NCBI GenBank assembly: GCA_039683175.1
Contig: JBDKRX010000019.1
Span: 49,423 to 113,422, forward strand
Direction: 5' to 3'
DNA length: 64,000 nt
DNA from: Phycisphaerales bacterium
Lineage (GTDB): Bacteria > Planctomycetota > Phycisphaerae > Sedimentisphaerales > Anaerobacaceae
Positions 4,263 through 60,876 of this stretch are shown here, piece after piece. A model generated the notes under the pieces. That model saw only the letters and a list, made by a program, of their open reading frames with translations. It was not told the DNA's origin and ran no database searches. The number at the start of each line of letters is the position of its first letter. Within the stretch, counting starts at the first letter, position 1. A program made the translations under genes and the position numbers.

Positions 4263-4274
4263 CCGGCCGGAGGC

Positions 4275-4432
4275 CGGAAATCCGAAATTCGAAGCACGAA
4301 ATGGGAAACAAATCCAAAGGACCGAAATTCAAATGACGGAAACGCTATCGCCCGTCGAATGATCCGTTTCGAATTCTGGATTCGGATCATTCGTGCTTGT
4401 TTCGGATTTCGAAATTCGGATTTCGGGTTTTC
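4275..4432. repeat. heptad-periodic palindromic intergenic element, copy A
   Basis: Left arm GGAAATCCGAAATTCGAAGCACGAAATGGGAAACAAATCCAAAGGACCGAAATTCAAATGACGGAAACG, ~19-nt centre, right arm CCGTTTCGAATTCTGGATTCGGATCATTCGTGCTTGTTTCGGATTTCGAAATTCGGATTTCGGG. The arms are imperfect reverse complements. Related copies lie near 14029, 19211, 47603, 49081 and 58141. Confidence 0.9.
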
Positions 4433-13144: not shown

Positions 13145-14028
13145 CAGAGACGCTCGCAGAGACGATGCCCGTAATCTCCATCACCGCCGATTGCCTGCCG
13201 GAGGCGTGGGAGAAGGCCGTGTTGGCCGTCTGGGACCAGGGCTATGAGGTGAAGACCCAGTACGACAAGCCCGACGATCCGCCGAGCAGGGACGCGACGG
13301 TGATGATCGCCGTGACGAACCCATTCAACGAGCCTCGGATTCACAAGAACTTCCCCGGCGGCCCTGAGGAGCTCGAAGCCTACCGCCAGGAGGTGGTCGG
13401 CGGCATTCACGACCACTGGATCGATCCGGCGGCCGGCAAGTGGACCTATACCTATCATGAAAGGCTGTTCGCGTATCGCCCGGTCGAGGACCTGCGAAAC
13501 CCCAAGAGTCCCAAGCCCTTCCGGGCGGTCAACCAGATCCAGTACATCATCGATTGTCTCAGTGAGGCAGGCCACACCCGCCGGGCCCAGGCGGTCACCT
13601 GGATGCCCACGGCCGACCCGCAGACGGACGATCCGCCGTGTTTGCAGCGGATCTGGTGCAGGCTTGTGGCCGACGAGGGGGGGCAGTGGACGCTGAACAT
13701 GAATACGCACTGGCGAAGCCGGGACCTGTACAAAGCCTGGTTCATGAACGTCTACGCGCTGACCGACCTTCAGCGAACGATTGCCGACGCGATTGCCCAA
13801 AAGCGGGGCGAGCCGGTCCGGGTGGGCCGATACGTCGATATCAGCGACTCGCTGCACATCTACGGCAGCTACTTCCGCGATGCCGCCGTGGAGATCGAGA
13901 AGATGCGAAAGACCCCCTTTGCCCAGCGAGCTTGGGAGAGCAACCATCCCGCCTTCGAGATGATGACGCAGGAGGCCAGGGAGAAGCTGGCCCGCGATCC
14001 CGACTGGTTCGCAAAAGCCCGGGGCTAA
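13141..14028 (+). CDS. thymidylate synthase (ThyA) superfamily protein, divergent
   Basis: ThyA-like core motifs in the canonical order: TYTYHERL, DDPPCLQRIWC (Cys nucleophile region), HWRSRDLYKAWFMNVYAL and ISDSLHIYGSY. Confidence 0.65.
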   Translation: MTETLAETMPVISITADCLPEAWEKAVLAVWDQGYEVKTQYDKPDDPPSRDATVMIAVTNPFNEPRIHKNFPGGPEELEAYRQEVVGGIHDHWIDPAAGKWTYTYHERLFAYRPVEDLRNPKSPKPFRAVNQIQYIIDCLSEAGHTRRAQAVTWMPTADPQTDDPPCLQRIWCRLVADEGGQWTLNMNTHWRSRDLYKAWFMNVYALTDLQRTIADAIAQKRGEPVRVGRYVDISDSLHIYGSYFRDAAVEIEKMRKTPFAQRAWESNHPAFEMMTQEAREKLARDPDWFAKARG

Positions 14029-14184
14029 GAAGCACGAATGTCGAAATTCGAAATCCGAAACAAATTCAAAGGACCGAAGTCCAAATGACCGAAACGCTGT
14101 CGCCCATCCGGATGTCCGTTTTGGATTTCGAGCTTTGAGCCTTCGTGCTTGTTTCGAATTTCGAAATTCGGATTTCGAATTTAC
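14029..14184. repeat. heptad-periodic palindromic intergenic element, copy B
   Basis: GAAGCACGAATGTCGAAATTCGAAATCCGAAACAAATTCAAAGGACCGAAGTCCAAATGACCGAAACG ... CCGTTTTGGATTTCGAGCTTTGAGCCTTCGTGCTTGTTTCGAATTTCGAAATTCGGATTTCGAA. Begins directly after the TAA stop at 14028. Confidence 0.9.
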
Positions 14185-14202
14185 GACAGGTAGGAGTATT
14201 GA

Positions 14203-19210: not shown

Positions 19211-19368
19211 GTCTGAAATTCGAAGCACGAAACCCGAAATCCGAAACAAATTCCAAGGACCGAAATTCCAATGACCGAAACGCGGTCGCCCGCCGGGGTG
19301 CCGTTTGGGATTTTGGATTTCGAGCCTTCGTGTTTGTTTCGGATTTCGAGTTTCGGATTTCGTGCTTG
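19211..19368. repeat. heptad-periodic palindromic intergenic element, copy C
   Basis: CTGAAATTCGAAGCACGAAACCCGAAATCCGAAACAAATTCCAAGGACCGAAATTCCAATGACCGAAACG ... CCGTTTGGGATTTTGGATTTCGAGCCTTCGTGTTTGTTTCGGATTTCGAGTTTCGGATTTCGTGCTTG. Confidence 0.9.
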
Positions 19369-19393
19369 TCCGGCAAGGAGGCAGACGGCTCAC

Positions 19394-45954: not shown

Positions 45955-46010
45955 TGTGGCACGGGCATTTCGCCCGTGATCCCGAATCCATGGGCGTCGC
46001 CCATGCTACT
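45955..46010 (+). repeat. twin stem-loop module CACGGGCA-CGCCCGTG / CATGGGCG-GCCCATG-CTACT, copy 2
   Basis: Same two hairpins, order and GCTACT tail as 12296-12353. Ends about 14 nt before the leuA ATG. Confidence 0.75.
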
Positions 46011-46023
46011 TGGAGAGCCAACG

Positions 46024-47589
46024 ATGTCAGGTGAAAAAGTATTGATTTTCGATACCACGCTCCGTGACGGCGAGCAGTCGCCCGGGGCGGCCATGTCGAT
46101 CCCGCAGAAGCTCGAGATTGCGCGGCAATTGGCCGTGCTCGGAGTCGATATCATCGAAGCGGGCTTCCCGATCTCCTCGCCCGCGCAGTTCGAGGCGACG
46201 AAGCTCGTCGCCGAGCAGGTGAAGGGCCCCACAATCGCGGCGCTGGCCCGCGCCAACGCCCTCGATATCGAGTCGGCGGGCAAGGCGATTGCCCCTGCCA
46301 AGAAGAAGCGAATCCACACGTTCATCGCGACCTCGCCGATCCACATGAAGCACAAGCTCAAGAAGGAGCCCGACCAGGTTCTGAAGATGGCGGTCGAGGC
46401 GATCCGGTGCGCGAAGGCTTTCACGAACGATATCGAGTTCTCGCCGGAGGATGCCTGCCGGAGCGAGATCCCGTTCCTCATGGAGGTCCTGGCGGCGGTG
46501 ATCGAGGCCGGCGCGACCACGCTGAACATCCCCGACACGGTTGGCTATGTGTTGCCCTATGAGTACGGGCAACTCATCGCAAAACTCAAGAGCGACGTCG
46601 CGGGCATCGACAAGTGCGTCATCAGCACCCACTGCCACAACGATCTGGGCATGGCGGTCGCAAACTCTCTGGCCGGCGTCCGCAACGGCGCCCGCCAGGT
46701 CGAGTGCACCGTCAACGGGCTCGGCGAGCGGGCGGGCAACGCCGCGATGGAAGAGGTCGTCATGGCGATCCGCACCCGCCAGGACTTCTTCAGCCAGGGA
46801 GGCGCGGACGGTTTGTCCACGAACATCAACACGAAGGAGATCTTCCGGACGAGCCAGCTCGTCTCGCAGCTCACGGGTTTTGTGATCCAGCCCAACAAGG
46901 CGATCGTCGGCGCCAACGCCTTCGCGCACGAGTCGGGCATCCACGTGGACGGCATCCTCAAGGAACGGACGACGTACGAGATCATGACGCCGGAGACGAT
47001 TGGCTTGGGCGGTTCGCGAATGGTGCTCGGTCGTCACACCGGCCGCCACGGCTTCGCCGACCGCTGCAAGCAACTCGGCTACAAGCTCACGAAGGACGAG
47101 CTCGAGCAGGCCTACCAGCGATTCCTGGTGATCGCCGACAAGAAGAAGGAGATCTTCGACGAGGACGTGGCAGCCCTCGTCAACGACGAGATCCGCGTGG
47201 TCGAACAAACGTATGTGCTCGATTACCTGCACGTCGCGTCGGGCACCGGAACGCTGCCGACGGCCAGTGTGAAGATGCGCGTCAAGGGCGAGACGAAGAT
47301 CGCTGTCGCATTCGGCGACGGGCCGGTCGACGCCGCCTACGAGGCGATTCGCCAGGCGATGAACCTGCGGCCCAAGCTCGAAGAGTACTCGATCCGCGCC
47401 ATTACGGCGGGCACCGAGGCCCTGGGCGAGGCGACGGTCCGCATTCGCGAGGACGGCCGGGCCTTCATCGGCCGGGGCGTCTCGACGGACATCATCGAGG
47501 CCAGCGCCAAGGCCTACGTGGACGCGGTCAACCGCATGGTCGCGGCCCAGGCGACGTCGGAACAGACGCAAGTGAACGGACAACCATAG
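46024..47589 (+). CDS. leuA: 2-isopropylmalate synthase
   Basis: IFDTTLRDGEQSPG, HCHNDLGMAVANSLAG, and a C-terminal LeuA allosteric domain. ATG at 46024. Confidence 0.9.
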   Translation: MSGEKVLIFDTTLRDGEQSPGAAMSIPQKLEIARQLAVLGVDIIEAGFPISSPAQFEATKLVAEQVKGPTIAALARANALDIESAGKAIAPAKKKRIHTFIATSPIHMKHKLKKEPDQVLKMAVEAIRCAKAFTNDIEFSPEDACRSEIPFLMEVLAAVIEAGATTLNIPDTVGYVLPYEYGQLIAKLKSDVAGIDKCVISTHCHNDLGMAVANSLAGVRNGARQVECTVNGLGERAGNAAMEEVVMAIRTRQDFFSQGGADGLSTNINTKEIFRTSQLVSQLTGFVIQPNKAIVGANAFAHESGIHVDGILKERTTYEIMTPETIGLGGSRMVLGRHTGRHGFADRCKQLGYKLTKDELEQAYQRFLVIADKKKEIFDEDVAALVNDEIRVVEQTYVLDYLHVASGTGTLPTASVKMRVKGETKIAVAFGDGPVDAAYEAIRQAMNLRPKLEEYSIRAITAGTEALGEATVRIREDGRAFIGRGVSTDIIEASAKAYVDAVNRMVAAQATSEQTQVNGQP

Positions 47590-47602
47590 CCGCCTGGGAG
47601 GC

Positions 47603-47777
47603 GGAAATACGAATACCGAAATCCGAAATTCGAAACAAGCACGAATGACCGAAATCTAAAATTCAAAACAACATGATATAGAGGACCGCGAGCATGCGTT
47701 CGCACAGAGTGTTTCGGTCATTTGGGTTTCGAGTTTTGGATTTGTTTCGGATTTCGAGATTCGGATTTCGGATTTTC
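47603..47777. repeat. heptad-periodic palindromic intergenic element, copy D (inverted relative to A-C; contains a gene remnant)
   Basis: Left arm CGAAATCCGAAATTCGAAACAAGCACGAATGACCGAAATCTAAAATTCAAAACAAC. 40-nt centre homologous to the 5' end of the four-helix-bundle ORF in copy E. Right arm GTTTCGGTCATTTGGGTTTCGAGTTTTGGATTTGTTTCGGATTTCGAGATTCGGATTTCGG. Confidence 0.9.
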
Positions 47778-47817
47778 TCAAGAATCAAGGTGTCTGAGAA
47801 CTGACAAGGGACTAACG

Positions 47818-49080
<1,263 letters not shown>

Positions 49081-49553
49081 AAAAATCCGAATATCAAAAT
49101 ACGAAATTCGAAACAAACTCGAATGACAGAAAACGAAAATCCCAAACAGTATGATCTGGAGGATCGGACGTTTGCCTTCGCACGGGATGTGCGCGAGTTT
49201 GTGAAAGGGTTGAAACGGACGATGGCCAACGTCGAGGATGGCAAGCAGCTCATCAGGGCGTCCGGCTCTGTCGGGGCCAACTACATTGAGGCAAACGAGG
49301 CCTTGAGCAAGAAGGATTTCCTGATGCGGGTCAGGATATGCAGAAAGGAATCGAAGGAAAGTCGGTACTGGCTCAGGCTTGTTGATGCCTGCGACGATCA
49401 GAAGCAGGAAGTCCGAAGGCAGGGGTTGATCCAAGAAGCCACGGAGTTGATGAGTATCTTCGGCGCGATTGTGCGCAAGAGCGAATAGCGTTTCGGTCAT
49501 TTGGGTTTTGAGTTTTGGATTTGTTTCGGATTTCGAAATTCGGATTTCGAGTT
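49081..49553 (+). mobile_element. palindromic element copy E carrying a four-helix-bundle gene (putative IVS-like or mobile cassette)
   Basis: Left arm 49081-49130 (AAAAATCCGAATATCAAAATACGAAATTCGAAACAAACTCGAATGACAGAAAACG). Right arm 49489-49553 (GCGTTTCGGTCATTTGGGTTTTGAGTTTTGGATTTGTTTCGGATTTCGAAATTCGGATTTCGAG). The arms match copy D. Mobility is inferred, not shown. Confidence 0.45.
49123..49488 (+). CDS. four-helix-bundle protein (TIGR02436 / 23S rRNA intervening-sequence protein / Avd family)
   Basis: 121 aa. Family-typical LEDRTFAFARDV...GSVGANYIEANEALSKKDF..RICRKESKESRYWLRLV. The start codon lies inside the left arm and the stop abuts the right arm. Confidence 0.8.
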   Translation: MTENENPKQYDLEDRTFAFARDVREFVKGLKRTMANVEDGKQLIRASGSVGANYIEANEALSKKDFLMRVRICRKESKESRYWLRLVDACDDQKQEVRRQGLIQEATELMSIFGAIVRKSE

Positions 49554-49575
49554 TAAGCGTTTTTGTGAGGATGTT

Positions 49576-50061
49576 ATGGCAAAGGCACATGTGTATAAGC
49601 GTGATCACATCAATACCGACGAGATCATCCCGGCTCGGTATTTGAATACGGACAACGAGGCCGAGTTGGCGAAGTACTGTCTGGAGGACCTGGACAAGGA
49701 CTTTGTGAAGAAAGCCAAGCCGGGCGATGTCATCGTCGCGGGGGATGACTTCGGCTGCGGATCCAGCCGGGAGCACGCGGTCTGGGCCATCCGCGGGGCC
49801 AAGGTGCAGACGGTCATCGCCAGGTCGTTCGCACGGATCTTCTACCGTAACGCGATCGACTGCGGGTTCTATCTGATCGAGTCGGCCGAGGCGGTGGACA
49901 AGATCAAGGATGGCGACGAGGTCGAGATCGACTACAACGCCGGCGTGATCCGGGACAAGACGAGCGGCAACCAGATCCAGTTCATGCCGCTGCCGGATTT
50001 TGCGCTCGAGATCATCCGCGACGGCGGACTGCTCAATCACATCATGAAAAAGACCGCGTGA
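49576..50061 (+). CDS. leuD: 3-isopropylmalate dehydratase small subunit
   Basis: [49 protein letters not shown] and ATG at 49576. Confidence 0.9.
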
Positions 50062-50081
50062 ATAGCGCACAGGCCGAGCCA

Positions 50082-51572
50082 ATGAACGCCAATTGCCTCC
50101 ACAGACGAGGGTTCCTCAAGGCCGCCGGGACAACGGCGATCCTGGGGTTCTGCGCCCGCGTTGGCCTCGATCAGGAAAAGAAGGCACGCCGCAAGCCGAA
50201 TTTCGTGTTCTTTCTGGTCGATGACCTCGGCTGGAGAGACCTGGGATGCTATGGAAGCACGTTTTACGAAACGCCCAACATCGACCGGCTTGCGGCGCAG
50301 GGCATGCGGTTCACGAGCGCCTACGCGGCCTGTCCCGTCTGCTCGCCGACGCGGGCCAGCATTGTGACGGGCAAATACCCCGCACGACTGCGGACGACCG
50401 ACTACTTCGGGGCCCCGCAGCCTGACACGGTGCAGAAGCACTGGACGAAGGACAAGCCTTTGTTGCCGGCACGCTACGATGACCGGTTGCCGCTTGAGGA
50501 AGTGACCGTCGCCGAAGCTCTCAAGGGGCACGGCTACGCCACGTTCTTCGCGGGCAAGTGGCACCTCGGACCGGAAGGGTTCTGGCCGGAGGACCAGGGC
50601 TTCGACATCAACAAGGGCGGCATCGAGCGCGGTGGCCCCTACGGCGGAAACAAGTACTTCTCGCCCTATGGGAACCCGCGGTTGCCCGATGGGCCGGTGG
50701 GAGAACACCTGCCCGACCGGCTGGCGACCGAGACGTGCGGATTCATCGAGGCCAATAGGAACCGCCCCTTCCTGGCGTATCTGGCGTTCTACTCCGTCCA
50801 TACCCCGCTGATGGCTCGCGAGGACCTCAAGGCCAAGTATGAAGAGAAAGCCAGGCAGGTGAAACACGATGGTCCGGCCTGGGGCAAGGAGGGCGACAGG
50901 CAAGTCCGGCTGGTGCAGGACCACGCCGTCTATGCAGGGATGGTCGAGGCGATGGACCAGGCTGTGGGCAAGGTGCTCGATATGCTGGACCGCCTGGACC
51001 TGGCGAAGGACACGGTCGTCTTCTTCATGTCGGACAACGGCGGCCTTTCGACCTCGGAAGGACATCCGACGTCCAACCTGCCCCTGCGGGCGGGCAAAGG
51101 CTGGCTCTACGAGGGCGGCATCCGCGAGCCGATGATCGTCCGCTGGCCCGGCGAGGTCCGCGCGGGCAGCGTCTGCGACGAGCCGGTCATCAGCACGGAT
51201 TTCTATCCGACGATGCTCGAGATGGCAGGCCTGCCGTTGAAACCGGAGCAGCACCTGGACGGCCGGAGTATGACGCCCCTGTTGAAGCAGCAGGGCAGGC
51301 AGGAAGGTCATGCGTTCTTCTGGCACTACCCGCACTACGGCAACCAGGGCGGCTCGCCCGGCGGGGCGGTCCGCGTGGGCGACTTCAAGCTGATAGAGTT
51401 CTATGAGGACAACCGCGTCGAACTGTATAATCTTCGCGACGATCTCGGGGAACGGAACGACCTGGCGGTGAAGATGCCGGACAAGGCCGCCGAACTGCGC
51501 CGGATGCTGCATGAGTGGCGTGTAAAGGTCGGGGCCCGGATGCCAACGCCAAACCCGAACCGGAAGGGATGA
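50082..51572 (+). CDS. Tat-exported sulfatase (arylsulfatase A family)
   Basis: Twin-arginine signal HRRGFLKAAG. FFLVDDLG and the formylglycine motif CPVCSPTRASIVTG. SDNGG and GKGWLYEGGIREP. An in-frame GTG at 50058 overlaps the leuD stop. Confidence 0.9.
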   Translation: MNANCLHRRGFLKAAGTTAILGFCARVGLDQEKKARRKPNFVFFLVDDLGWRDLGCYGSTFYETPNIDRLAAQGMRFTSAYAACPVCSPTRASIVTGKYPARLRTTDYFGAPQPDTVQKHWTKDKPLLPARYDDRLPLEEVTVAEALKGHGYATFFAGKWHLGPEGFWPEDQGFDINKGGIERGGPYGGNKYFSPYGNPRLPDGPVGEHLPDRLATETCGFIEANRNRPFLAYLAFYSVHTPLMAREDLKAKYEEKARQVKHDGPAWGKEGDRQVRLVQDHAVYAGMVEAMDQAVGKVLDMLDRLDLAKDTVVFFMSDNGGLSTSEGHPTSNLPLRAGKGWLYEGGIREPMIVRWPGEVRAGSVCDEPVISTDFYPTMLEMAGLPLKPEQHLDGRSMTPLLKQQGRQEGHAFFWHYPHYGNQGGSPGGAVRVGDFKLIEFYEDNRVELYNLRDDLGERNDLAVKMPDKAAELRRMLHEWRVKVGARMPTPNPNRKG

Positions 51573-58091: not shown

Positions 58092-58140
58092 AGCCGCACG
58101 CGGCCGAACGGCCCGAGGGCCGTCGCCCGGCGATAGCCGC

Positions 58141-58203
58141 GTTTCGGGTTTTGGACTTGAGTCATTGGAATTTGTTTTGGATTTGGTGCTTCGGATTTGG
58201 GAT
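58141..58203 (-). repeat. half copy (single arm) of the heptad-periodic element, copy F
   Basis: The minus strand reads CCCAAATCCGAAGCACCAAATCCAAAACAAATTCCAATGACTCAAGTCCAAAACCCGAAAC, which is left-arm type. It encodes the last 14 codons and the stop of the upstream gene. Confidence 0.75.
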
Positions 58204-60876
58204 GTTCTCGTCCAGGATCGTGACAGTCCCCCGGTCGCCGTCCACGCGGAGCAGTTGGCCGGTCCGGATGATCTTGGATGCGGAGCCGACATTGACGACG
58301 GCCGGGATGCCGTACTCGCGGGCGATGATCGCGCCGTGCGAGAGGACGCCGCCCAGGTCCATGACCACGCCGGCCGCCGGCAGGAAGTAAGGCGTCCACG
58401 CCGGGTCGGTGAACGGGGCGACGAGAATCTCGCCGGCCTCGACGTGCCCGTGATCGTCGGTGCGGAGAATGACGCGGGCCTTGCCCGTCACGATGCCGGG
58501 CGATACGGCTATCCCTTTCCACTCCCTGGCGGCATCGTCGATCTGGGGCAGCACGTGTTTCCGTGGATCGAATCGGCCTATCACGACCGGCGGCGGCGTA
58601 CAGGCCTTGTTTCGCTCGTAGTCCGGCCGTCGAGCGGCGATTCGCGGCCTGGCATCGAAATCCGCGCGACCCTGCGAGAGAGCCTCGATCTCGCCGAGCT
58701 CCAGAAAGAAGATGTCCTCGGCAAGAGGCAGGACGCCGTTCTTGTGCAGCCTGTCGCCCAGCGTCAGGAGCGCCCGGCGCAAAGCCGCCAACTGGCGGAC
58801 GACCTCGTTCTTCCAGTTCTCGCGGTCCGCGGCGAGCTTGCGCACCGCCGTGAGCGACCAGTTGAAGATCGCTCGCTTGATCGGATTCCTCAGGCGTTTG
58901 CGGCATCGCTCGGTCAGATCGTCGCGTTCGGCTGCCAGCCGGCGGCGGTTATCGAGTGGGCTCACGTTCCCGATGGAACGCAGATAGTTGCGTACCATGT
59001 CGAGGACGTAGTCGGGCCTCTCGGACCAGCGGGCGTTGGCGAGTTCCAGTTCGCCCCGGCAATGGTGTCCGTGGTCGGTCATAAACCGCTCCCAGGCTTC
59101 GAGGAACCGGCGGCCGGGCTCCGTCCCGCGGAGTCTCTCTCGCGCCGGACCCCACGAATCCTCGGACAGCAGCGTCCCCTCCGTCTGTGCGTCGCCATGC
59201 GCCGATTCCGCAAGACGCCAGAGTTCCAGGCCGGCTTCGGTATCTGCGATCCCGCCCTGGGCGGCCAGGAGTCGATAGCCCAAGGTGAGGTCCTGGTCGC
59301 CCAGCCAACGCCGGCAGGCCCGGTCGAACAGCAGGATCGCCGGAGCGCTCGTAACCAGGTACAACAGGTCCAGGTCGTCCACGTTCTGCCGCAAGGTTGC
59401 CGGCACGAGCCTCGCAAGGTCCGCCGTGCTCATGGCCTCCATGTCGATCGCGAGAAGCTCTTCATTACGCGCCTTGATCCTGGCACGGGCCCGAGCCCCT
59501 CGCTTGGGCGAATGACTGAACAGGGTGTAGATGACCCGCGGCCACGAGAGAATGTACCTGGGCCAACTGAAACCGAGATCCGGCAGATCCTCGTCGGGGA
59601 AATCGAACTCGCCGAGGTGGTACATTCTCACATGCCCACCGCCGAACATCGCCTCGGACCTGGCTGCGTCGTCGGATCTGATGCCAAACGGCAGAACGGC
59701 GGCCATTCCCACATTGATGCTGAAATACACCCGGCCCGCCACCAGGCCGACAACCGGGCTCTTGTTGATGTCCGCGCCCACCAGACGGCAGACCGAGCCA
59801 AACATGGGGTAGAACAGAAGTTGAATCATCGACCACGTGGCGGGAGTCACAACATCCGGAAAAACTTCGCCCACGTTCGTGTTGGCCCAACCCTGGCGGT
59901 CTTCCCAGGACCTGGGTTGCGGGATCGCCGTGATGGGCCGGGTCTGGAGAAACCAAAGCGTGCCGTCGTGGATTGCCCACTCGATATCCTGTGGGCCGCC
60001 GAGCCTTCTCTCGATCCGTCGAACGGATCGGCCGAGCCTCCGGGCGGATTTCAGGTCGAGCGAGGGTTCGTCCCCCGCGAGGTTCTGGCGGATCCGCCTC
60101 AGGTTCTTCTTCACCAGCAGGATACGATCGGGCTGGACCTTGCCGGAAACCAACGCCTCGCCGAGACCCCGGCACGACTCGATCACGATCCGGCTGCGGC
60201 TGCCTGTGACCGGATCGAGCGTGAAAGCGACCCCGGCGACGTCCGGCTCGATCTGTTGCTGCACGATGACTGCCATCTCGACCTGTTGGTGGTCGATCCC
60301 GTTTCGCCGGCGGTACTCATACGCCCGCTCAGTCCACAACGACGCCCAGCATCTCTTGATTGCGTCGAGACACTCCTCCAGCGACTTCACGCCAAGAACT
60401 GTCTCATACTGCCCGGCGAACGAGTGCCCGGGCAGGTCCTCCGCCGTGGCCGAGGAACGCACGGCTGCGACGGAGGCCCCCAGCCGGCGATATGCGGCTG
60501 CGATCTCCGCACGGAAGGCGTCTGTCAGAGGCACGCCCTTGATGAGTCTGCGAATCTCCTCCAGTGCCTGCTGCACACCGTCGGGGCGGACGTCGATGCC
60601 ATCCGCGATCGCTGCAATCTGTGGACGAAGGCCGTTTGCATCGAGATGCTCCGCAAACGCAGCCGTCGTTACGAAGAAGCACGGAGGGACTTGCATGCCC
60701 AAGCAGCGAAGCATGCACAGACTCGCCGCCTTCGGGCCGACCAGACTTCGATCCGTGGCCGACAACCTGCCGTTCAACCAGTAGACGGCTCTCTCATCCA
60801 CGATGATCCTCACTACATCATGTACCAGGCAACCACCTGGAATACGAGGATAGCCGCATTTCCCAGGGAGTGCCAC
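58162..60876 (-). CDS. PEP-utilising enzyme family protein, rifampicin-phosphotransferase-like architecture (ATP-grasp N-terminus + swivel His domain, no PEP/pyruvate barrel)
   Basis: N-terminal PPDK_N-like VGPKAASLCML...VPPCFFVTT...SSATAEDLPGHSFAGQYET. C-terminal mobile domain GIAVSPGIVTGKARVI...ILVAPFTDPAWTPYF...GGVLSHGAIIAREYGIPAV. The start may be the GTG at 60813. Confidence 0.75.
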   Translation of the reverse strand: MALPGKCGYPRIPGGCLVHDVVRIIVDERAVYWLNGRLSATDRSLVGPKAASLCMLRCLGMQVPPCFFVTTAAFAEHLDANGLRPQIAAIADGIDVRPDGVQQALEEIRRLIKGVPLTDAFRAEIAAAYRRLGASVAAVRSSATAEDLPGHSFAGQYETVLGVKSLEECLDAIKRCWASLWTERAYEYRRRNGIDHQQVEMAVIVQQQIEPDVAGVAFTLDPVTGSRSRIVIESCRGLGEALVSGKVQPDRILLVKKNLRRIRQNLAGDEPSLDLKSARRLGRSVRRIERRLGGPQDIEWAIHDGTLWFLQTRPITAIPQPRSWEDRQGWANTNVGEVFPDVVTPATWSMIQLLFYPMFGSVCRLVGADINKSPVVGLVAGRVYFSINVGMAAVLPFGIRSDDAARSEAMFGGGHVRMYHLGEFDFPDEDLPDLGFSWPRYILSWPRVIYTLFSHSPKRGARARARIKARNEELLAIDMEAMSTADLARLVPATLRQNVDDLDLLYLVTSAPAILLFDRACRRWLGDQDLTLGYRLLAAQGGIADTEAGLELWRLAESAHGDAQTEGTLLSEDSWGPARERLRGTEPGRRFLEAWERFMTDHGHHCRGELELANARWSERPDYVLDMVRNYLRSIGNVSPLDNRRRLAAERDDLTERCRKRLRNPIKRAIFNWSLTAVRKLAADRENWKNEVVRQLAALRRALLTLGDRLHKNGVLPLAEDIFFLELGEIEALSQGRADFDARPRIAARRPDYERNKACTPPPVVIGRFDPRKHVLPQIDDAAREWKGIAVSPGIVTGKARVILRTDDHGHVEAGEILVAPFTDPAWTPYFLPAAGVVMDLGGVLSHGAIIAREYGIPAVVNVGSASKIIRTGQLLRVDGDRGTVTILDENIPNPKHQIQNKFQ

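Follow-up and report, generated by a model that had tools for sequence, protein, structure and literature searches.

A small gene lies inside a long palindrome between leuC and leuD in the 64,000-nucleotide stretch of Phycisphaerales DNA analysed here (64 kb; the window; contig JBDKRX010000019.1), where the + strand carries, in this order, leuA (45976-47589), leuC, leuD and a sulfatase gene (Table 1). An earlier note, made from the sequence alone, had described at this place an open reading frame (ORF) that starts within the left arm of an inverted repeat and stops directly against the right arm, and had assigned its product to the Avd / 23S intervening sequence (IVS) protein family. The ORF is present as claimed, and its product passes the curated cutoffs of both profiles proposed for checking it, PF05635 (46.4 bits; cutoff 33.8) and TIGR02436 (68.4 bits; cutoff 24). 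It also matches a solved protein of the S23p family, 2RLD (phmmer, E = 1e-10), and is 100% identical to a protein named 'four helix bundle protein' by PGAP in a Phycisphaerales metagenome-assembled genome (MAG); an exact-protein lookup returned no record, though a 100% identical cluster exists. The AlphaFold 2 (AF2) model of the monomer likewise contains four helices (predicted local distance difference test, pLDDT, 92), with residues 1-5 disordered (pLDDT < 50). Its best Foldseek matches, by template modelling (TM) score, are 2RLD (TM 0.71-0.82), 2GSC and Avd 4DWL (TM 0.62-0.67), all three of which are pentamers. PADLOC and PHROGs gave no match for the protein.

Two long complementary arms built from tandem 7-nt repeats enclose the ORF from start codon to stop codon. 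The left arm begins 1-3 nt past the leuC stop and includes the ATG at 49123 and the first codons, the first ~9 of which (MTENENPKQ) are themselves heptad-like arm sequence; the right arm ends ~20 nt upstream of the leuD ATG, with a GAGGA Shine-Dalgarno-like motif outside the stem. In the predicted fold 'AUGAC(A)GAAA(A)CG' pairs with 'CGUUUCGGUCAU' immediately 3' of the UAG, the latter facing 'AUGACAGAAAACG' at the ORF start, and the right-arm 'CGTTTCGGTCAT' pairs with the start-codon region. Joined by a tetraloop, the arms reach -43.2 kcal/mol (z = -4.26; 0 of 200 shuffles as stable), which confirms the pairing of the heptad-built arms noticed earlier and supports the proposed gene-in-a-hairpin architecture in the leuC-leuD spacer. 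The whole 501 nt fold with a z of only -1.7, because the coding interior dominates. Within 47400-49800 no sigma-70-type promoter-like site was found and no terminator-like site on the + strand; the sole terminator-like match lies on the minus strand within the ORF and is within the chance number. The short GC-rich stem with U tract of an intrinsic terminator is not seen in the cassette.

Table 1. The cassette, its host genes and the other hairpin copies in the window.
Feature	Position	Strand	Evidence or remark
leuC, 3-isopropylmalate dehydratase large subunit, upstream host gene	47818-49080	+	stop TAG at 49078-49080
Left (5') arm, A-rich CGAAATN-type heptads	49081-49135 (or about 49083-49135)	+	repeats, fold
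Four-helix-bundle protein gene, 121 aa, ATG to TAG	49123-49488	+	PF05635 / TIGR02436; S23p/Avd fold
Right (3') arm, T/G-rich NATTTCG heptads	49486-49554	+	begins at stop codon
leuD, small subunit, downstream host gene	49576-50061	+	start ATG at 49576
Gene-less hairpin between 793-aa ORF and fumarate hydratase gene	4270-4432	+	z = -4.8
Gene-less hairpin between thymidylate-synthase-like (ThyA-like) gene and peptidyl-prolyl isomerase (PPIase) gene	14026-14186	+	z = -5.1
Gene-less hairpin between nrdR and ATP-cone gene	19212-19372	+	z = -6.5
leuA-leuC copy, both arms and ORF stub (ATG 47645, ~65 nt)	47596-47785	+	z = -6.0
Half copy: left arm, ATGAC, loop-like 'CCGAAACGCGGCTATCGCC', then GC-rich sequence	58140-58209	-	sequence match

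The search for further arm-flanked copies that the earlier note had called for found them both in the window and in other genomes. With up to 3 mismatches allowed, the window has 5 matches to the right-arm 26-mer, where 0.00 would be expected, and in total the window holds five full hairpins and one half copy, all five being flanked by + strand genes. Four of the five are gene-less, and with the half copy they answer the suggestion that the element might have no other copies in this genome; among them the leuA-leuC hairpin still has an ORF stub. The remaining three, each ~160 nt long, have one common loop, fill the spacer between two co-directional + strand genes and still have the beginning of the ORF, ATGACSGAAAC, as part of the inner stem; the copy nearest to the window's beginning keeps ATGACGGAAAC, the first ORF codons, there. 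The leuA-leuC copy matches 49083-49190 over 108 nt at 77% identity and the right arm over 68 nt at 93%, jumping from the 5' end of the ORF to the sequence past its stop, and a weak remnant is still recognised by the profile hidden Markov model (E = 0.002); it is thus an internal deletion of the ORF. The half copy has no matching second arm. Around it long ORFs overlap on both strands. Between the leuA stop and the left arm of the leuA-leuC copy lies a small GC-rich hairpin (CCGCCTGGGAGGCGG, 47590-47604), and a relative's locus, L001, has the same one before its leuA-leuC element (CCGCCCAGGGGGCGG); this may be a structure that pre-existed at the insertion point. Rfam, run at gathering thresholds on the whole window and in E-value mode on 47400-49800, returned only chance miRNA matches.

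The arms of relatives vary in a coordinated manner. Loci of relatives carry labels with L and a number, and further gene-bearing loci came from a metagenome scan with a family alignment (n = 80). At the orthologous leuC-leuD site the arms read CGAAAT/ATTTCG in a high-GC lineage and CTAAAT/ATTTAG in a low-GC lineage, every heptad being changed from G to T on the left and from C to A on the right. RNAalifold together with explicit counting gave 32 pairs with 96% of cells paired, whereas sliding the partners by 1-3 columns leaves 19-57% paired; in four heptad pairs G-C alternates with U-A (UA:9 / GC:5), and double-change cells number 23 versus 10 +/- 2.3 in shuffles, a count reached in 0 of 500. 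A third variant, CCAAAT/ATTTGG, occurs in L190. Across the 80 loci the variable heptad base pair is G/C in 38 and T/A in 8, and the flanks are complementary in nearly all of the 71 loci where they are complete. The alignments thus show that arm pairing is maintained, at a level (RNA or DNA) that covariation does not tell apart. Residue 118 of the protein (window 49474-49476) follows the arms in L131-L210: elements with T/A arms have Thr or Glu there (...IVTKSK, ...ILEKTK) and never Arg, those with G/C arms mostly Arg (...ILRKSE). This may reflect co-variation of protein and heptad, in a set of 2-3 clades with kinship not controlled. Heptad arrays can also expand far past the usual 4-6 units: L163:1-230 has more than 25 tandem heptads, CTAAAT and CGAAAT mixed, upstream of its four-helix gene.

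The arm is distributed far beyond the Phycisphaerales. In a scan of one genome per species, with taxa read from record titles and some contigs possibly misassigned in MAG binning, the exact 26-nt right arm was found in at least 119 stretches (chance ~0.01). The matches listed cover about 12 phyla and a local GC content of 39-70%; they include Planctomycetota, Verrucomicrobiota, Lentisphaerota, Acidobacteriota, Desulfobacterota, Nitrospirota, Chloroflexota, Armatimonadota, Omnitrophota, Hydrogenedentota, Patescibacteria and Alpha-, Beta- and Gammaproteobacteria. Short hairpins of 55-293 nt account for 91 of these listed arm matches, and the four-helix gene adjoins the arm in only four of the listed loci (Deltaproteobacteria, an Alcaligenaceae MAG, Dehalogenimonas and a Patescibacterium). 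These four have the same layout, and their proteins are 57-68% identical to the window protein where complete. The arm sequence, not pairing alone, is thus conserved across phyla, and the hairpins form a widespread, apparently undescribed family that has no Rfam entry. The gene-less hairpins have no orientation bias (24 versus 18, with orientation defined by pattern); an orientation based on the arms is undefinable because the palindrome is so symmetric that an A-rich arm stands 5' on either strand. A phage-borne element was considered and ruled out, as the arm 26-mer is rare in viral contigs (5 of 2.9 million).

The protein family itself is large (6,071 clusters at 50% identity; single-sequence search, E up to 1e-3), and its association with flanking heptads extends past the CGAAATN arms. 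Distant plasmid homologues, 31-39% identical, are also flanked by heptad repeats, of other sequence. Clearly inverted heptad arms occur in Nostoc ((AATTCAA)x4, 31 nt perfectly complementary, with a right arm that begins at the stop codon), Planktothrix ((AATCCCC)x4 (AATCGTA)x3, duplex z = -10.6) and Chlorohelix (GATGAAG-type, duplex z = -6.2); in Pseudanabaena, Bernardetia and Chondrinema the flanks complement each other less well (duplex z -1.5 to -2.1), and many of the repeats are direct. The gene is thus associated family-wide with flanking heptad repeats, which in the clearest cases pair as a hairpin. The genomic setting recurs as well. Of the 80 metagenome loci, 68 allowed a call for the upstream gene (heuristic gene calls), which runs in the same direction in 58 of them (85%); the median gap from the upstream stop codon to the four-helix ATG is 55 nt. 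Seven of eight plasmid homologues are annotated on both sides, and all seven stand between co-directional neighbours, several of which are subunits of one system (helicase-methylase, RND adaptor-permease, HsdS-HsdR, csx2-cas1). Defence-type gene sets surround the distant members L212 (Pseudanabaena plasmid), L221 (Monoglobus), L218 (Chlorohelix) and L220 (Planktothrix), with the neighbour pairs csx2/cas1, HsdS/HsdR and helicase/N6-methylase (the last in L218). In L220 a helicase-domain gene stands before the four-helix gene and an unnamed ORF after it, and the four-helix ORF of Monoglobus is not annotated.

The leu operon is the site of 15 of the 80 homologous loci, whose LeuC is 80-85% and LeuD 73-89% identical to that of the window. 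In L001-L004 (protein 88-95% identical) the full gene lies in the leuC-leuD spacer, and L001 has an ORF stub between leuA and leuC, matching the window; the layout is reversed in L005 and L006 (85% identical), with the full gene in leuA-leuC and the stub in leuC-leuD. The deeper-branching L133, L150, L187 and L210 have no element in their leuA-leuC spacer, which measures just 25-50 nt. The leuC-leuD cassette is old and vertically inherited, because the same site is kept in relatives that have diverged to such LeuD identities and to saturated synonymous sites (dS from 0.43 to saturation among leu-operon orthologues). The leuA-leuC copy was gained later, in one sub-lineage, after which reciprocal loss reduced each operon to one intact gene. 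The ratio of nonsynonymous to synonymous substitution rates (dN/dS) of the gene is 0.04-0.08, which marks strong purifying selection; the four-helix protein thus matters to the cell or to the element. The earlier note had called the cassette possibly mobile, a view that suits the gene-less and leuA-leuC copies, which turn over, but not the leuC-leuD cassette, which is no recent insertion. It had also reckoned with relatives carrying the ORF at this site without arms; at leuC-leuD the ORF always has them.

Some leu spacers of relatives have other contents. In L004 (L004:560-1690; OY970194.1, a Sedimentisphaerales chromosome) an unrelated low-GC insert of ~1.1-1.3 kb with a long ORF occupies the leuA-leuC spacer in place of the hairpin; gene calling splits leuC of this locus into pieces of 212, 147 and 67 aa, which points to frameshifts or to errors in the assembly. 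The leuC-leuD spacer of L209 (L209:1640-2500) and L179 (L179:1-270) contains a left arm with an ORF stub, an unrelated ~800-nt gene whose product ends ...LKELEDLKGKF, and a complete cassette, which could represent either a nested or tandem build-up of elements or the capture of another gene.

Turnover of a gene-less copy is best seen at the nrdR spacer, where four relatives found via homologues of the ATP-cone protein were compared. The spacer is empty (39 nt) in the closest of them, L214 (ATP-cone protein 89% identical). L215 (GCA_002327785.1, DCUI01000051.1; 86%) has a different 217-nt palindrome of TTCTTCG/GAAGAAT-like units in this place (L215:1283-1501; minimum free energy, MFE, -100.6 kcal/mol), and two more distant relatives have unrelated 145-nt spacers. 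Because the spacer is empty or differently filled in relatives, the window's hairpin is a recent, lineage-specific insertion. Together with the leu-operon history, this shows recent gain of at least one gene-less copy as well as of the second copy in the leu operon. The units of the L215 palindrome resemble the TCTTCCN heptads flanking the Pseudanabaena four-helix gene (L212), and this palindrome may belong to a second hairpin family competing for the same spacers.

ORF-bearing IVSs of 23S rRNA that encode S23p are known from Leptospira and Coxiella burnetii, and the parallel with them drawn in the earlier note holds in several respects. The Coxiella IVS is 428 nt long, has terminal inverted repeats forming a 28-bp stem that RNase III cuts in the middle, and carries two to three GACAGAT heptamers and a GACAGAA just before the S23p ATG; its ORF is decaying and probably goes untranslated, and one strain has a 176-bp deletion (PMC4990558). 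The cassette likewise encodes a PF05635 protein inside a terminal inverted-repeat stem, has tandem heptamers immediately upstream of the ATG, reads in sense to the host transcript without a promoter of its own and loses the ORF by internal deletion. The differences are that the host site is a protein-coding operon spacer and not helix 9, 25 or 45; that the heptad is CGAAATN here and GACAGAT there; that the ORF is under strong purifying selection here and decaying in Coxiella; and that there are many gene-less copies per genome. Excision by RNase III is known for 23S IVSs and extended to the leuC-leuD cassette by analogy. No rRNA motif (four of 23S, one of 16S) was found in the ~210 loci scanned, and Rfam gave no rRNA match in the window. 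The cassette is thus not an rRNA IVS in the strict sense and is best filed as a variant of the IVS kind in mRNA operons, one with MITE-like derivatives and an exceptionally wide distribution. The full-text literature yielded no description of non-rRNA cassettes of this family or of these hairpins; subscription journals were largely outside reach, and an earlier mention is possible.

Short multicopy intergenic palindromes are otherwise represented by repetitive extragenic palindromic (REP) sequences and BIMEs, REPINs and miniature inverted-repeat transposable elements (MITEs; Correia, ERIC, RUP). These are often transcribed as parts of operons, where they influence how stable the mRNA is or how it is processed, and their non-autonomous copies originate from, or rely on, a partner that has a gene. 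The hairpins resemble them in having multiple dispersed copies with inverted-repeat ends (in the window and in the at least 119 stretches elsewhere), in presence/absence polymorphism (the nrdR spacer of L214; the leuA-leuC spacer of L133, L150, L187 and L210) and in derivation by internal deletion. Unlike REPs and MITEs, they have as their sole gene a 121-aa helical bundle inside the palindrome, with no known nuclease or recombinase fold; their arms are tandem heptads, and the same arm spans about 12 phyla, whereas REPs and MITEs are lineage-specific. Tandem heptanucleotide repeats, the STRR sequences, are reportedly found between genes of heterocystous cyanobacteria (attributed to Mazel and colleagues, 1990). 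They are likewise intergenic arrays of 7-nt units, and such arrays flank the four-helix genes of Nostoc and Planktothrix; we know of no described link between STRRs and the four-helix gene family or a hairpin cassette.

Another relative of the protein is Avd, the accessory protein of diversity-generating retroelements (DGRs), a four-helix bundle of the same superfamily. In a cryo-EM study all five protomers of the Avd pentamer bind an 11-bp RNA stem-loop, and DGR RNA, like the cassette, pairs sequences upstream and downstream of its cargo (bioRxiv 10.1101/2023.10.23.563531).

We favour, with modest confidence, the reading that the locus holds a 'heptad-hairpin cassette' of the IVS type whose host is an mRNA operon and not 23S rRNA. 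The cassette would be transcribed by read-through from the host operon, a reliance suggested by the missing sigma-70-type site and by the opposite-strand position of the only terminator-like match, and in the transcript the arms would form a 45-60 bp AU-rich duplex that sequesters the AUG. RNase III may cut this duplex as it does in 23S IVSs, which would separate the flanking cistrons harmlessly and release a small mRNA. The gene-less hairpins would have arisen by internal deletion, as MITE-like derivatives, and would persist and spread in the form of short palindromes. The protein, presumably a pentamer, probably recognises the heptad duplex, for which the stem-loop binding of Avd is a precedent within the family for binding structured RNA. 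Such recognition would explain why the arm sequence is conserved across phyla and is at present the sole explanation for it; the association of residue 118 with the arm variant, uncontrolled as it is, fits the idea.

Several points weigh against this reading. RNase III is not sequence-specific, so it does not explain an identical 26-nt arm in about 12 phyla, and an AUG buried in a stem without a Shine-Dalgarno sequence must somehow be used, given the strong constraint on the ORF. The compensatory changes amount essentially to one deep split between two clades and a few other lineages, and arm-to-arm gene conversion in a DNA palindrome could be their source. The sense duplex is only slightly more stable than the antisense one (48 versus 22 of 71 loci, p = 0.04; mean -46.1 versus -44.4 kcal/mol), and the corresponding split in the short copies is 57 of 91 (among the matches listed). 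Because the arms are almost equally stable on either strand, RNA-level and DNA-level roles are inseparable here, and a palindrome acting at the DNA level fits almost equally well. Furthermore, inspection of filled versus empty sites revealed no evident target-site duplication, and no mobilising enzyme was identified: no transposase was noticed beside the window copies, in the leu-operon relatives or beside the plasmid homologues, neighbours that were not screened systematically.

The near-equality of the two strands is also what recommends a palindromic mobile element of the MITE or REP type, in which the arms would serve as terminal inverted repeats or single-stranded DNA hairpins for a transposase or recombinase encoded elsewhere, the four-helix gene being a passenger and the RNA hairpin a side effect. 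The common loop of the short derivatives suggests amplification from a single short progenitor, and the recent, lineage-specific insertions and the same arm in about 12 phyla over so wide a range of GC are in keeping with it. We nevertheless regard it as unlikely: the enclosed gene is always of the same family and enclosed exactly from start to stop, even at 31-39% identity and with other heptads, which is not expected of a random passenger; the cassette is kept at leuC-leuD past synonymous saturation; and the preponderance of gene-bearing copies behind a co-directional gene, the missing target-site duplication and the lack of a transposase among the neighbours viewed count against it as well. 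Strong purifying selection and the retention of exactly one intact gene after the leu-operon duplication, through reciprocal loss, would suit a domesticated post-transcriptional module instead, that is, RNA processing or stability hairpins kept by the host which, together with a heptad-specific four-helix pentamer, form a small regulon and not a selfish element. The conserved arm sequence, the RNA binding of Avd, the tight position of the hairpins between co-transcribed housekeeping genes and the absence of Arg118 from T/A-arm elements point the same way. Against this account, which we consider doubtful, stand the nrdR-spacer hairpin, absent or replaced in relatives with an ATP-cone protein still 86-89% identical, and the origin of the residue-118 association in 2-3 clades without phylogenetic control.

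That the gene is an orphan or remnant Avd accessory gene of a DGR is highly improbable. The fold is common to Avd, and PF05635 is the commonest Pfam family adjoining DGR reverse transcriptases (PMC10053308), but the protein is nearer in sequence and structure to the stand-alone S23p proteins 2RLD and 2GSC, and its conserved partner is a hairpin, not a pair of template and variable repeats. The earlier note had stated that the window has no reverse transcriptase, and a crude YxDD motif scan of the 64 kb agrees, finding no RT-like ORF and matching only unrelated proteins; none was seen among the called neighbours in relatives' loci. No template or variable repeats were noticed either: the repeats in 47400-49700 are element copies and chance-like 12-27 nt matches, with no dedicated search of the whole window. 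All this suggests that the cassette is not a DGR. Scarcely more credible is a common terminator or attenuator hairpin between two cistrons, or a palindrome arisen by chance beside a spurious ORF, to which a long stem in an intergenic spacer might at first point. The stem is AU-rich and 45-60 bp long, with no terminator-like site on the + strand, leuD must be co-expressed with leuC, and the reading is contradicted by an ORF that passes curated thresholds with a dN/dS of ~0.05 and by a motif found 5 times in the window against 0 expected.

A more far-reaching version, to which we give a low probability, is that the four-helix pentamer is a sequence-specific reader of heptad-repeat duplexes and that gene and hairpins constitute a new kind of genetic element. 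This would be either a mobile element that has a 121-aa helical bundle for its only gene and spreads and maintains its palindromes without transposase or reverse transcriptase, or a portable post-transcriptional 'hairpin regulon' moving between phyla. Either form would explain both the identity of the 26-nt arm across about 12 phyla and the concerted switching of arm variants, and would also answer the 30-year-old question of what the IVS ORF is for.

As for the IVS-type cassette that we prefer, it bears on a large protein family, S23p/IVS, whose function has been a question since 1993. The defining partner of this family appears to be a heptad-repeat hairpin rather than ribosomal RNA; an mRNA-operon cassette under strong selection and gene-less derivatives in many phyla would make the 23S IVS a particular instance of a more general element. 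The hairpins are also a widespread structure of intergenic DNA that at present escapes both genome annotation and Rfam, and the cassette may help to explain how Avd came by its RNA-binding role in DGRs.

Gene calling by ORF length is noisy in high-GC DNA, and the window's own leu genes were mis-called in this way. Two antisense ORFs of 756 aa (47812-50082, minus) and 518 aa (46027-47583, minus) overlap leuC/leuD and leuA, respectively; they were rejected as high-GC artefacts that had misled simple calling. The sulfatase gene between leuD and leuB (Iso_dh) encodes a twin-arginine-like signal and is found both in the window (50058-51572) and in L001 (L001:3953-5458), an odd passenger for an amino-acid biosynthesis operon in the leu operon of this lineage.

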